From Podarcis pityusensis (taxonomy: Eukaryota), in assembly GCA_964106645.2 (NCBI GenBank), contig OZ067045.1: a DNA stretch of 64,000 bases. The stretch is one strand, 5' to 3'. The position numbers were made by a program, and so were the translations under genes. This document shows positions 2,381-64,000 of the stretch, piece by piece. The notes beneath the pieces are model-generated. The model was not told where the DNA came from, did not search any database, and saw only the letters and a program-made list of their open reading frames with translations. The stretch's first letter is position 1, and each line of letters begins with the position of its first letter.

Positions 2381-3989
2381 CAGGCTGCCTGGGGCTTGCA
2401 GCCAGCTCTCAAAACCCCACCCCACCCCCAACTCGTCACCCTGGGAAACAGAGGAGACAGCCAGCCAGGAAAGAGCTTCAAAGCTGCCAGCCGAGTGTCT
2501 GGCTAGCCGCACAAATCTATCCTTCATGTGAGATTACTCAGGAGAATCCCGCATAGGTGCCTGCCTGGATCAAGGCCTGGTTGATGGTCAGGAAGGATGG
2601 AGCCCCTAAGTCCTACATAAGCTCCCTTTCTGAGCCAAGCCATTGCCGAAGTAATCGCTCCCTTGGGGCTCACTGCTAAGCTCCTGCCCAGTGCACTAGT
2701 GGTTGGGTTTGCAATTGTGAGTCTTTCTAGTACCAGAGAAATGGACATGAAGGCAGCTTTTTGCTTCTGATGCTTTTTTTTAAAAATGGGATTGATATAT
2801 ATCAATCTCAAAAGCTCACAATCACAAAGAATAATAAAACAACAAAATGAATACCAATCCTTCCTCCTCCTCTCCTTAGGTTGAACACAGATATATCTTT
2901 GTTTACATTAGAGCACATGACATGCAACAATTACATAAAATTAAAATTAGAACAACAACAACAATGATAAACACTCTGATAAACATTTCTGAGAAGTGCA
3001 TATACGAAAATTTCTACCCTTATCACAGATATGAAATGATATATTGTAATGTGTGGTGCTTAGATTGCTATCCATAAGAAAAAAGGTACTGTATTTTGTA
3101 TCAGTTTCTCCCCAGGTTAGTTACTAAGGTAATTGTTATTATTTGCACAATCTTCTAGACAGACTAGTTAGGTGAATCAATGTCCCAGTGTTTATACTGT
3201 TATCCAAACAGGTCTTTTAAAAATGTACTAACTTGTGTTTCTTGTATAGTATCCACCCCACCAACACACACATGTGGCAAAACCCTTTTGAAACTGACAG
3301 GTCCTTAAATACTGTTTCTGTTAAAGGGGCCCTGGTGGATCTGCTGTCAATTCAAAGTGGGGTGGGGTGGGGGTCGTAACTTCTTCCAGGTGTTCCTGAT
3401 GCAGTTCTATGGACCTGGCCCTTTGATTATTAGATTAATACATACGGTAAATACATACATAATTTTATTTGTATGCTGCCTTTCCAGTGTTCAAGCAATG
3501 CTCAAGGCGGCTTACAACATGGCTTACAACATTACTACTACATAACAAAAGTAGTCATAAATAATAATAAATAAAATATAAAAAATGCACAACCAAGCTG
3601 AACGATTTCCACATAAATCACAAGATCTAAAATAAAAATACTGAAACACCCTCCCGCAACAACAACAAACCTTCCTGGAGTATGGCTTGACATTCCATGA
3701 TTCCAAATCTTGAATAACAGATTTGCCTGAACCAAACCAAAGCCAGAACCAAATCACCGAACCACAGAAAAAGTGGTTCACAGTGTATTGAGACATTTGG
3801 GTGCATAGCTTATAATGAAATAGAAGAAAATAGACTTAAAAGGCCAGCATCCTCAAGTCACATATACCTGTGTGTGGCTTTGGTGTCCAAACAAATGATC
3901 AAATATATGCCAACCCACATGAATATTTTGTTGGGAAAGGATTTCCTACCCACCAATGCCATCCAAAACTCCAAGCAGTTTGATGCAAA

Positions 3990-3990
<1 letters not shown>

Positions 3991-4020
<30 letters not shown>

Positions 4021-60181: not shown

Positions 60182-60584
60182 AAGAGGAGGAGGGGGACCT
60201 TCGGTAACAAAGAGAGAATGAAGAGTGAGGTTAGCAAGAGGAAATGCGGTCTCTCCTTCAGATTGCCCGTTTTCCGGATTCAGAGCAGGAGTGGCAGTCT
60301 TAGAAGCACAGAATCATAGTCACAGAATCATAGAATGGTAGAGTTGGAAGGGGCCACAAGGGTCATCTAGTCCAAACCCCTGCGATGCAGAAATCTTTTG
60401 CCCAATGTGCGGCTCAAACCTACAACCCTGAGGTTAAGAGTCTCATGCTGTACTGACTTCAGCTATCCCTTCAGTATTGCAGCCCTCCAGATGTGACTGC
60501 AGATCCCATCATCCCTGCAACATCTGAAGAAGAGCCATAGGTTAGGTAACCTTGCTGTAGGAGATTATTAACCTACCTGTCCAT

Positions 60585-60933
60585 GGGACATGGGTGGCGC
60601 TGTGGTCTAAACCACTGAGCCTCTTGGGCTTGCCGATCGGAAGGTCGGAGGTTTGAATCCGCTCGATGAGGTGCACTCCTGTTGTTCTGTCCCAGCTCTT
60701 GCCAACCTAGCAGTTTGAAAGCACACCAGTGCAAGTAGATAAATAGGAAGGAAACCGCGTTTCCATGCGCTCTGGCATCTGTCATGGTGTTTCATTGCAC
60801 CAGAAGTGGTTTAGTCATGCTGGCCACACGACCCGGAAAGCTGTCTGTGGACAAACGCTGGCTCCCTCGGCCTGAAAGTGACTGGCCTTTGACTGGACTT
60901 AACCATTCAGGGGTTCTTGACCTTTTTACCTTT
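60585..60933 (+). mobile_element. Sauria SINE with internal deletions
   Basis: Same body and tail. 11-bp TSD TACCTGTCCAT (60574-60584, 60934-60944). Confidence 0.9.
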
Positions 60934-61115
60934 TACCTGTCCATCCACCCTGTTATCTTAATTTCTCTCCTTGCTCCCTTTCTGCTGTGCCAATCAATTG
61001 TTAATCCCACCTACCCACTTCCTCTTGCTCTCAATTATTTATTTATTATTAAATCTGAATGGAAGCTGTCAAGGATGGCTTATTCATTATAGATGGATTA
61101 TCCCCTGCTCCCAAT

Positions 61116-61151
<36 letters not shown>

Positions 61152-61647
61152 TATGCAAGATGGCCAACAAGGTAGGGATACTAAAGTAGCAATGAGGGAT
61201 GGAAAGCTGTAATTGTTGCTAATAATGAATTGTTGTCTGATCCTTTTTACACCAAACCTTCATAGGACTCCATTCACATGTTTCTCAACTTTTATGATCC
61301 TGAAGACTGTCGGTTTACCAGGTTCCCTTTAATCTGCATTCTGCATTAGATGTCACTGTTTGCCCATTTTGATGTGAACTTGAAGAGAGAGAGAGAGAAA
61401 GAAAGAGGATAGATACATGAATTATTGGTTACAAGATAGGGTGAGAGTCCGCCTGTAATTTTCGCATTTCCTTTCCTTATAGAAAATGATTTAGAAAGCG
61501 TGTGTTTTGCTTGAAACCTTGAGGCAGGTTATTTGACTTGGGTAAGGTAAGGACAGATTTCACAGCTCCTTTTTTGGGTTGAACACTGAGCTTCCCACCT
61601 GAGGGCCTGAAGTTTATATAATCAGGTGTTAAGCCAAGTTTACACCA

Positions 61648-62517
61648 ACACCATACATTTAGAGCACATTTGATGCACATAGCTTCTCCCAGATAATCCT
61701 GGGAAAGCCACTTCCGCAATAAACAAGGAGGTGGGGTTGCGGGAATCCCCGCCCGTGTCATACCCCGGGCCAGCCAATCGGCTGGCTCCGGGGGCGGGGC
61801 CTCGGCTATTTAAACCTGCCACAGCCGAGGCTCCTCCTCTTTTCTTCCGCTGCTGCAGCTGACCCGGTTTTCCCGCCCATCCCACCCCTTTTTAGGATAG
61901 GTTCTCTGACGTTGCTATGAATTCCGGTTGGTCGCCATCAAGGGGCCTGGTAGGAATTTTCCCAAATGGCAGGTTGGCTCCAGCCATTTGGTTTTCGCCT
62001 ACCTCGTAGCCAACCGTCACAATACCGTCTTCGGTATTGGCGGTTAGGCATTGGTAGGGGTACTGTCCTATTGTTATGCAAATGAAGGGGGAAGGAGCGC
62101 CATCACCTTCCCCTAAGCAAGGGTAGTTCGGTAAAGGATTCTGGGGGGCGTGGCCTTGTCCTAAGCCTAAGGAGGTGTGGGCCCATGGGCGGTGACACCC
62201 GGGTGAGGTCCTAGTTGACGTGCCTCAGCAGGACTCCTCCCTCTGGTGATTAACCCTTCCGGCCTCTAGCCGGTTAGTAGTTAGGACCATTGCCTAAGCC
62301 AATACTGCTCAATTCCTGTAATCAATAAAGTTGTGGCCCAATTTGACCCATTAACCTGAATTCTTGTGTCCTGTGTCTTTATTTCCTCGGGGGGAGGCGG
62401 GAACTCGCCACACAACTGTAGTTTGTTAAGGGCACTGGGAATTGTAACTCTGTAGGGAGCAAACTACAGTTTCCAGGATTTTTTGAGAGGAAGCCCTGTG
62501 CTTTAACTGTATGGTGT
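61648..62517. mobile_element. Palindromic MITE-like host element (related copy ~54120-54290)
   Basis: Termini ACACCATACATTTAGAGCACA / TGTGCTTTAACTGTATGGTGT (19/21 inverted match). Confidence 0.7.
61706..62413 (+). mobile_element. Non-coding LTR-like insertion, possibly a terminal-repeat unit of a DIRS/Ngaro tyrosine-recombinase retrotransposon
   Basis: CpG-rich insert splitting a palindromic MITE (61648-62517). CCAAT 61774, GC box 61791, TATTTAAA 61807, AATAAA 62324. No TG..CA termini and no clear TSD. Confidence 0.55.
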
Positions 62518-62529
62518 ATCTGTGACTTA

Positions 62530-62720
62530 GGACTTGGGGGACCAGGGGTTCAAATCCCCACTCAGCCATGAAGCCTACTAGTTGACCTTGGGGCAGTCAC
62601 AGTCTCTCAACCTAACCTACCTCACAGGATTGTTGTGGAGATAACATGGGACAGGAGAGGACCGTGTACTCTACCTAGAGCTTTTTGGAGAGATGGTGGG
62701 ATAGAAATGGAATAATAAAA
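62530..62720 (+). mobile_element. Older tRNA-derived SINE (Squam3/CORE-like); other copies at ~27855-28003, 31868-32075, 49985-50190(-), 55630-55745(-), 58150-58350
   Basis: B box GGTTCAAATCC followed by CACTCAGCCATGAAGC..GTGACCTTGGG..AACCTACCTCACAGG shared by all copies. Confidence 0.75.
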
Positions 62721-64000
62721 TCAGAAGAAGCGTGTGTGTTTTTAGTTTTGTTCCCAAACATTAGCTCTCTGTGTGCCCCGCCACCCCTGCAAAATGTCCC
62801 CACTTCTGCATTTGGTGGTCATCGTCACAATGCTCTTTACCCATGATCGTAAAGAATAAGTCTTCTTTTTTCAAAGATGTACCCTTCCTCTAACTTCTAA
62901 CTTTTGTCTCTTAGCACTTTAGAAGCTCTGGAGAGATGGTGAGGTGGGCAGTTTTAAAGTCCTGTTACCCACCTTGAGTTCTCAGGATAGGGCAGGTTGA
63001 ACCCCGCCCCCCTTCCCCCTTTTAGCTTCAGCTCTATGACCCTGGGCTGGAAATAGTTATTTTACTGGCTGATGAATGAGGTGTGAATTGCTGAAGATGG
63101 AGCCTCTCTCAAGCTGTGTTCACACTTGTTCAGCCTCCATCCTGGCTCCCGTCTGCAATCCTTGCTGAACTGTGAACATATTGTAAGACTTGGCAGCTGT
63201 AAAGGGACCAGAATAGAATGACTTCTGCTCTCTTTGCCTGGAACCTGTGGCCTTACCTGAATCTCACTTTGAAACTGATCATGCTGGGGTGGGGAAAGCA
63301 TCAAATCAGACAGCATGAGAGACGGAAACAGGACAAAAAATCTAAGAACATAGGGAAACCTCTTTAAACCGAGCCAGACCCCTGGTCCATCTAACTCATT
63401 CCTGTCTACACTGACAGGCTGTGACTCTGCAGGGCTTCAGAAATGCCCTACCTTGGAGATGCTGGGGACTGAACCATGCAAAGCCCTATGCACAACCCTT
63501 GAGAGATGTCCCTTCCTCTTTCATTTTCCAACCTGTCTTCCTTTTGGTAGCCTTTTTTACATCGCTCCATCCTCTGAGGAAACTCCTGTGTGTGGCAGAG
63601 GATTATGGGACATGTGGCAGGATGCTCTTCACAATGGGCCATACAATCACCTCTTGCTAAATGAGAGCATGGCTTAGCATGCTGGGTGCACTTCCTTTCT
63701 GAAAAGCTTCCATTTCATAACTGGTCCCTGAGAAACCTTAAAGCTCAGGGATGGCAAACCTAAGACCTGCTAAATACTGTCAGATTCTGATTCCCATCAG
63801 CCCCAGCTAGCAAAGAATGGATGGCCACAAGTTTCCTCACCTGAGCTCTGCCTAGCTTCAGAAGGAGCCCTAGGTTTTCTCCGCGCACGGCTAGCTCGTG
63901 AGATTGAAAATCTGCTGCTCTGTTGCCTTTGATACCTGGGAAACATGGGCAGGATTCTCCACGTTCCTGTATCCCAGCATTCAACAGCCCTCAAGACCTC

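Follow-up and report, generated by a model that had tools for sequence, protein, structure and literature searches.

An apparent solo terminal unit of a lizard Ngaro retrotransposon with a probable conserved RNA fold in its spacer

The window, a stretch of 64,000 nucleotides of contig OZ067045.1 from Podarcis pityusensis (GenBank assembly GCA_964106645.2), contains an insertion of about 700 bp (positions 61706-62413), which the initial annotation described as a self-contained, non-coding unit with a promoter, a densely structured core and a poly(A) signal. Our analysis bears out the insertion as a discrete unit and places its boundaries exactly. It interrupts a MITE, as had been proposed: the MITE arms at 61648-61668 and 62497-62517 pair across the insert at 90%, and uninterrupted copies of the MITE elsewhere run directly into position 62414 (four public assemblies, 43-56 contigs per run). 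The insert holds no substantial open reading frame (ORF), the longest stop-to-stop frame inside it being 110 aa, and TG..CA ends are absent both from it and from every parsed copy. The target site duplication (TSD), also reported as missing, proved to be only partly so: there is no variable duplication, but a fixed AA is found on both sides of the insert (61704-05 and 62414-15), as expected for integration by a recombinase. The counts of this dinucleotide in Table 1 refer to 25 copies parsed out of 30 loci. The sequence motifs of the initial annotation were all recovered, at most 1-2 bases from where it had placed them (Table 1).

Table 1. Features of the insert and its host MITE (positions in the window) and of a second repeat carrying the same fold (positions in the respective contigs).
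Feature	Position	Strand	Basis or remark
Host MITE, left part	61648..61705	none	inverted arms with 62470-62517
Left AA of the crossover dinucleotide	61704..61705	+	AA in 22/25 parsed copies; same AA at the internal B1-A2 junction
Repeat A, promoter half	61706..61871	+	extent of A1=A2 and mapping of the window unit; A/X boundary from relatives, within a few bases
Hairpin at the start of A, just after the crossover	61708..61734	+	arms co-vary between families, by inspection only
CCAAT box in palindrome (hairpin)	61769..61786	+	CCAAT followed by C or T in 26/28 parsed close copies; perfect palindrome in 12/28
TATA-like box, TATTTAAA	61807..61814	+	TATWTA in 7/11 aligned A repeats; promoter activity putative
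Unique spacer X	61872..62037	+	single in each full-length element, flanked by A2 and B2; C-rich tract at its start
X core, three-way junction	61907..62019	+	91% of cells paired, with compensatory changes
X core, outer stem	61907-61918/62006-62019
CGGTTGG/CCAACCG	61925/62010
X core, variable hairpin	61930-61947
X core, U-loop arm (ENE-like arm)	61949..62003	+	lower stem 61949-54/61998-62003 (GGTAGG 61949/CCTACC 61998); upper stem 61962-70/61983-91 (CCAAATGGC 61962/GCCATTTGG 61983)
Interior of the ENE-like arm	61957-60/61992-95		A.G and purine-pyrimidine step, U4 61957-60 facing U4 61992-95
Hairpin private to the window copy	62020..62039	+	4-nt insertion in 1/28 parsed copies; gap versus the four nearest
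Repeat B, 3' half	62038..62413	+	extent of B1=B2, alignment of 9 B repeats; contains closing stem, internal hairpins, poly(A) signal and GU-rich downstream tract
Closing stem of B	62044-62055/62286-62297		TTAGGCATTGGT 62044/ACCATTGCCTAA 62286
Octamer ATGCAAAT	62076
Arm complementary to the sequence preceding B1	62298..62326	+	covers TGTA and the AAT of AATAAA
AATAAA poly(A) signal	62324..62329	+	followed by an invariant AAAGTTGTGGCC stretch in 9/9 aligned B repeats; putative use
Host MITE, right part	62414..62517	none	arm pairing and other MITE copies
Right AA of the crossover dinucleotide	62414..62415	+	AA in 25/25 parsed copies
Bird-like repeat with the X-core fold	L263:8-303; L266:940-1240; L290:1007-1299; L240:1510-1850

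The insert belongs to a dispersed family with 3,553 candidates at first look; among the 40 that were scored, the other copies are 82-94% identical to it, and both of its ends are common to all copies. Compared with its four nearest copies, the window copy shows 3.7-5.9% divergence and a deletion of 52-59 nt in its 5' part, located after position 61741 in repeat A. In runs of organisms D and E, contigs covering the insert flanks (61200-61743 and 62414-62572) enter the insert. In two runs of organism B, the flank contigs instead stop at 61705 and start at 62414, suggesting that the site is empty in this organism, with no single contig bridging the empty site among those listed.

The assignment of the insert to a terminal unit of a DIRS/Ngaro-type element, put forward in the initial annotation, was right and can be sharpened to Ngaro-type by parent elements in the same genome. 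These longer copies, for which the initial annotation had suggested a search, carry ORFs for reverse transcriptase/RNase H (RT/RNase H) and tyrosine recombinase. The full-length relatives are 7-8 kb long and are organized as A1, gag-like ORF, RT/RNase H, tyrosine recombinase, SGNH hydrolase, B1, A2, X and B2, with the window unit mapping onto A2-X-B2. Were the insert a solo end derived from a split-repeat element, other loci would be expected to join its 3' end to its 5' start, and such a B-end/A-start junction was matched 29 times genome-wide (control, 0); in 24 of these 29 cases, the block ending at the junction is B-sized, that is, it comprises only the 3' half of the unit. Among 20 stretches picked solely by a tyrosine recombinase match (including PF00589 matches), 15 have A1 identical to A2 and B1 to B2 at 98-100%, whereas one has an interrupted B and four end after B1; L091 and L094 are likewise split-repeat elements. 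Across 17 full-length or internally deleted elements, in which the limits of A and B were set by the extent of A1=A2 and B1=B2, A measures 213-231 nt, B 392-439 nt and X 157-168 nt.

At the protein level, the Pfam RVT_1 match lies over the cut-off (E = 1.5e-13), and the integrase SAM-like (E = 1e-3) and GDSL lipase (Lipase_GDSL_2, E = 6e-5) matches both lie below the curated cut-offs. The R-K-HxxR-W-Y recombinase motifs are present in three of four ORFs. In all three elements inspected, the RT ORF terminates approximately 40-45 aa past RNase H without a further domain, and a search of three parents for a methyltransferase and terminal inverted repeats returned none, only short local palindromes. 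The RT homologues are lizard and amphibian proteins that bear no element names, the nearest being from Zootoca and Podarcis. Split direct repeats, an SGNH ORF and the lack of both a methyltransferase and terminal inverted repeats identify the parents as Ngaro-type, and they match the available excerpt of a published Ngaro description (PMC9210276). A DIRS1-like retrotransposon was ruled out, as inverted terminal repeats, an internal complementary region and a methyltransferase are missing from all three elements. We thus read the insert, from its sequence and that of its relatives, as a solo A-X-B terminal unit without genes that derives from a lizard Ngaro tyrosine-recombinase retrotransposon, with a probability of roughly 0.97. 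An ordinary solo LTR of an ERV or Gypsy element would also bring promoter boxes and then a poly(A) signal within ~700 bp, but such an origin is practically untenable: no parsed copy has TG..CA ends or a TSD of 4-6 bp, the parents combine split repeats with a tyrosine recombinase, and the B-A junctions, identical A and B repeat pairs and A2-X-B2 parents refute it.

Several other arrangements accompany the parent elements. Deleted Ngaro copies lie beside or within Gypsy-like pol sequence in two loci (L092:1-3500 and L093:1-5000). Gene-less mini elements, composed of A, a short filler and B-A-X-B, occur together with tandem A-X-B repeats in L040/L041, L046 and L058; they are likely to form a non-autonomous family, as they keep the B-A junction and have a deletion in A in common. 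Finally, seven small contigs (C48, C88, C156, C204, C216, C222 and C331) match phage integrases with E-values of 1e-24 to 1e-12, far stronger than the matches of the Ngaro recombinases, and are probably bacterial contamination.

In repeat A, the CCAAT box typical of close copies (Table 1) is absent from the corresponding place in three distant families. Judging from the sequence, transcription would start approximately 25-30 nt downstream of the TATA-like box, inside A. In repeat B, all 8 unselected full-length B repeats have the closing stem, and the window copy has it with one mismatch; its complete pairing in a set of selected rows (290 of 290 cells, 100%) is no test, because the selection had relied on both arms. 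Of the 28 parsed copies, 15 have the exact octamer. A search of B for a conserved internal A tract longer than three before AAUAAA found none. A hairpin loop in B with the sequence GG/GTTAAA (window 62130-62135) is nearly invariant across families that are otherwise ~60% identical, and is a possible tertiary contact. Folding of the B-A junction gave mostly one hairpin on either side of AA; a single hairpin across the junction was rejected, appearing in only 2 of 11 RNA folds and 2 of 11 DNA folds with mixed z-scores.

The most conserved part of the unit is neither repeat but the spacer X. X was the best-conserved segment in 19 of 21 pairwise comparisons, and between distant families (12 pairs) its identity amounts to 67-72%, compared to 46-54% for A and 57-62% for B. 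The X core pattern has 3,055 exact matches in the genome (control, 0), and the number of X copies is ~3,000-4,000. The core of the window copy matches the model with E = 1e-32, the copy being itself a member of the training set. The fold has a similar shape in 7 of 7 copies (z-scores from -1.8 to -4.2, sense strand), and the 114-nt core of the window copy yields z = -4.0. For the whole putative 521-nt transcript, z is -1.9 in the window copy, with 3 of 100 shuffles folding as well, and -3.2 and -5.5 in two young relatives.

The initial annotation proposed a conserved structured RNA, and the core indeed covaries, with compensatory substitutions among copies and folding beyond that of shuffled sequences. 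In an alignment of 32 rows, 91.5% of cells are paired, two-sided changes affect 10 pairs (3 of 500 shuffles) and the number of pair types is reached by 1 of 500 shuffles. Restricting the set to 17 rows not chosen by variant patterns leaves 91.1% of cells paired and 6 double-changed pairs (1 of 500), with further pair types not significant in this unselected set (98 of 500); two of the X alignments (A3 and A5) contain one row each shortened on the 5' side. Across 82 cores, one position of the lower stem takes U-A, C-G, A-U and G-C, and another takes G-C, G.U and A-U. A C/G variant pattern of the core has 11 matches, 9 complementary and 2 mismatched, and an A-U variant pattern has 6 matches in the genome (L122-L127), of which L124 and L126 look, by their sequence, like old Ngaro units. 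Because double transitions could arise neutrally, only family-level cases (L113, L128, L133 and L135) were counted as compensatory, and all copy counts overstate independence, since the copies are related. None of the 11 outer-stem pairs shows a two-sided change, and a large part of X is kept as sequence, not through covarying pairs. Overall, it is very probable, from sequence comparison, that X is a conserved RNA fold with a covarying three-way junction.

Not all of the helices initially drawn belong to this fold. Of the nested stems, GGTAGG/CCTACC is the conserved lower stem, and the stem formed by CCAAATGGC and GCCATTTGG corresponds to the conserved upper stem; CGGTTGG/CCAACCG, on the other hand, is paired in only 55.9% of cells (78 of 500 shuffles reach as much), its CCAACCG arm resulting from a private substitution found in 1 of 28 parsed copies, and the conserved outer helix is instead UGAC-UUGCUAU/GUAGCAA-GUCA. 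The hairpin at 62020-62039 and its competition with the first stem are both present as described, but are private to the window copy; since the conserved outer helix differs from CGGTTGG/CCAACCG, the competition concerns this copy only. As anticipated, no named RNA family could be assigned: an Rfam scan of 60500-64000 yielded 3 chance-level matches at E<=5, none over the gathering score and none in X.

The likeness to reptile CR1 3' UTRs mentioned in the initial annotation was neither borne out nor refuted: four contigs of a non-Ngaro repeat contain a homologous core, but in none of them is it attached to a CR1 ORF. We call this repeat bird-like because of what we take to be a CR1 tail in L263. 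The CR1 3' end in that contig stops ~70 nt before the repeat begins, so the motif is not part of the UTR of that CR1; a search of viral_contigs for the CR1 link gave 0 matches. The four contigs come from a metagenome collection in which 80 of at least 108 loci were fetched; they hold the full fold, whereas the others look like chance matches. They match the X-core model with E-values of 7e-16 to 7e-7, the core having been preselected by pattern and the junction helices not. The repeat has the A-U variant of the lower stem, followed by 2-3 degenerate copies of the motif at ~175-nt spacing. No Ngaro ORF match was found in its fetched flanks, and its open frame has no match in Pfam or ESM Atlas.

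What the fold might do is suggested by its interior. A symmetric U-rich internal loop between helices, located upstream of AAUAAA, is the layout of an ENE. According to the excerpted literature, such an element holds the poly(A) tail in a triple helix and thereby prevents its deadenylation (PMC13541005), and Evade of Arabidopsis shows higher RNA stability and more transposition with an ENE (PMC12501189). AATAAA lies ~330 nt downstream of the U-loop in the window copy and mostly 310-400 nt downstream in other parsed copies. On the transcribed strand, the two U runs are 3-6 and 3-7 long and correlated in length (rho 0.35) among 95 cores, which are related and were found by patterns requiring U runs. 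The upper side of the loop is bordered by nearly invariant CC/GG; on the lower side, an R-Y pair (A.C in 49 of the 95 cores) and an A.G step precede GG/CC. The latter argues against an ENE, as there are no directly flanking G-C pairs on the lower side, whereas such pairs are described as essential for ENE function in the part of the Evade study available (PMC12501189). The Rfam scan gave no ENE-like match at E<=5 in 60500-64000. We consider it somewhat probable that the U-rich internal loop of X forms an ENE-type triple helix with the poly(A) tail.

Because X is conserved largely in sequence, a protein-binding site would fit as well as an ENE. X could serve as a signal for Gag packaging, or for docking or priming of the RT, that marks the full-length RNA, with no poly(A) binding by the U-loop. 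X is unique to the read-through RNA and opens with a C-rich tract; the outer stem, the junction and the apical AUUGGC loop are conserved in sequence, and the primer of DIRS-order reverse transcription is unknown, as stated in the available part of one source (PMC7192593). The U runs, however, co-vary in length yet stay U, a behaviour more readily explained by a triplex than by a protein that recognizes the sequence, and the bird-like repeat, near which no Ngaro ORF was matched, holds the homologous core in tandem. A purely protein-binding X is rather unlikely, and binding of protein and of poly(A) is in any case not mutually exclusive. A compact, conserved, multi-helix RNA in a retroelement could also be a self-cleaving or otherwise catalytic RNA that sets a transcript end, ribozymes being known in other retroelements. 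We regard this as very improbable: the Rfam scan brought up no ribozyme model at E<=5, the three-way junction that the data support is nested and has no pseudoknot, and cleavage in X would sever B2 or the body of the genomic RNA.

The position of X in full-length elements bears on how a triple-helix-forming loop could be used. B1 and B2 contain identical AATAAA signals, and X stands only before B2, never before B1. An arm of B just upstream of AATAAA (Table 1) is complementary to the end of the SGNH ORF, a protein-coding sequence preceding B1, which is predicted to pair with the 25-30 nt before and into AATAAA; this partner is missing from the solo unit in the window. In 24 of 31 elements, none of 200 shuffles matches the duplex. 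B1 has a lower predicted openness than B2 over the 10 nt preceding AAUAAA in all 17 elements (0.29 at B1, 0.65 at B2) and over AAU in 14 of them, the whole hexamer being predicted just slightly less open at B1 (0.51 vs 0.58, 12 of 17 elements). The pre-B1 stem passed cell-count controls (0 of 500) and failed the stricter pair-count controls (192 of 500 and 28 of 500). Masking of the first poly(A) site, B1, by this pairing is, on the modelled structures, modestly favoured. A small hairpin was also observed just before B1 (around position 1500 of L169-L198; L090:8040-8065), with a fixed CGAGC/GCTCG-type stem and a free loop; it sits between two copies of TGGCGG, the motif that starts B, and has 698 matches genome-wide.

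Given that X is placed only before B2 and that masking is possible only at B1, the following model can be proposed. The B-A junction, which is required for rebuilding both ends, would be present only in RNA reading through B1. At B1, pairing of the end of the SGNH ORF over the 25-30 nt before and into AAUAAA would weaken the poly(A) site. At B2, X stands in place of the masking partner, and the poly(A) site is predicted to be open. The new poly(A) tail might then dock in the U-loop ~330-360 nt upstream and resist deadenylation. Transcripts would thus pass B1, be polyadenylated at B2 and have their tail held by X, which would favour the copyable RNA. We tentatively suggest that such a two-part RNA switch picks the copyable RNA in vertebrate Ngaro, that the clamp is old and portable, occurring also in tandem in the unrelated bird-like repeat, and that thousands of solo units spread promoter-plus-ENE-plus-poly(A) cassettes through lizard genomes, a scheme that as a whole we hold to be possible rather than probable.

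The formation of solo units probably coincides with insertion or follows it closely. Counted with search patterns of unequal strictness, X-B junctions number 3,946 and pre-B1 junctions 698, and 18 of the first 30 pre-B1 loci continue into A-X-B. The youngest family has 8 solo units per 22 full elements (first 30 of 44 X copies), 7 of the 8 being at least 99.75% identical to a full element; in the same family, 5 of 19 recombinase loci end after B1 (5 A-ORFs-B per 14 full). Elements ending after B1 were noted in L079, L084, L085, L086 and L088 and in L095, L103, L107, L111 and L117. The permuted form A-X-B-A-ORFs-B was found in none of 30 pre-B1/X loci and none of 29 B-A junction loci. The element's own recombinase, acting at the internal B-A junction, possibly makes the solo units. 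The rival is ordinary homologous recombination between A1 and A2, as for a retroviral solo LTR, requiring neither a recombinase nor a small circle; it has been suggested for solo AB repeats in the accessible part of an earlier study (PMC8547959), and identical repeats recombine best while young. Homologous recombination should, however, favour A-ORFs-B, as the B repeats are twice as long and ~15 times closer, whereas the two half-forms are approximately equal, albeit in small numbers from two samplings, which fits better with a recombinase origin. We give homologous recombination slightly less than an even chance. Whichever way it was formed, the window copy is most likely a dead end, because it has no B-A junction; with its promoter-like boxes, X and poly(A) signal, it could nevertheless make an RNA of ~500 nt.

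The Ngaro class and its solo repeats are already known and the new part is the X RNA; thus, the interest of the unit rests on RNA function. How genomic RNA is produced and selected in split-repeat recombinase retrotransposons is not established, and two short, defined RNA elements are offered here. Literature searches found no paper on Ngaro spacer structure, a Ngaro ENE or Ngaro poly(A) control. The TOC1 element of Chlamydomonas, too, is built of split repeats, and a short stretch of unique sequence separates its internal from its terminal repeats, but it is a PAT-group, non-autonomous, algal element. A 2016 survey of ENEs in transposable elements by Tycowski reportedly lists one fish species, possibly with a DIRS-order element.

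As far as the excerpts of the cited papers go, Ngaro elements with an SGNH hydrolase (Xenopus DIRS-53_XT type) have the same A1-ORFs-B1-A2-B2 layout with identical repeat pairs and the same gag-like, RT/RH, YR and SGNH ORFs without a methyltransferase (PMC9210276), and Cafeteria Ngaro leaves isolated solo AB repeats, as seen here (PMC8547959). To these, the lizard Ngaro adds a spacer of ~165 nt between A2 and B2, which is more conserved than the repeats and has a covarying fold; the excerpts mention neither a fold of this kind nor control of polyadenylation (PMC9210276, PMC8547959). SIRE of Trypanosoma cruzi, derived from VIPER, is the same kind of dispersed short unit of A2, unique spacer and B2; its spacer is only ~30 bp, it belongs to another YR group, and the available part of its description mentions no ENE-like structure (PMC6681497).

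The ENEs and dENEs of KSHV PAN, Evade and other plant and fungal transposable elements share with X, in the excerpted accounts, a sense-strand U-rich loop between short helices (PMC12501189, PMC13541005), as well as a place ahead of a poly(A) site, putative in the case of X, within an intronless mobile element of which only one terminal repeat follows (PMC12501189, PMC13541005). X differs in its vertebrate DIRS-order host, in having a single loop set in a three-way junction and in its two-sided A.G / R-Y step, and its triplex is putative. If the U-loop is an ENE, poly(A) triplexes borne by transposable elements, so far mostly from plants and fungi according to the same partial source (PMC12501189), would reach an amniote and the DIRS order. 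Finally, the available text on the HIV-1 polyA hairpin describes an RNA structure that likewise represses the first of two identical AAUAAA signals (PMC2645353); in the lizard Ngaro, the masking arm lies outside the repeat, which would confine it to B1, and pairs over ~350 nt, a pairing that is so far predicted.
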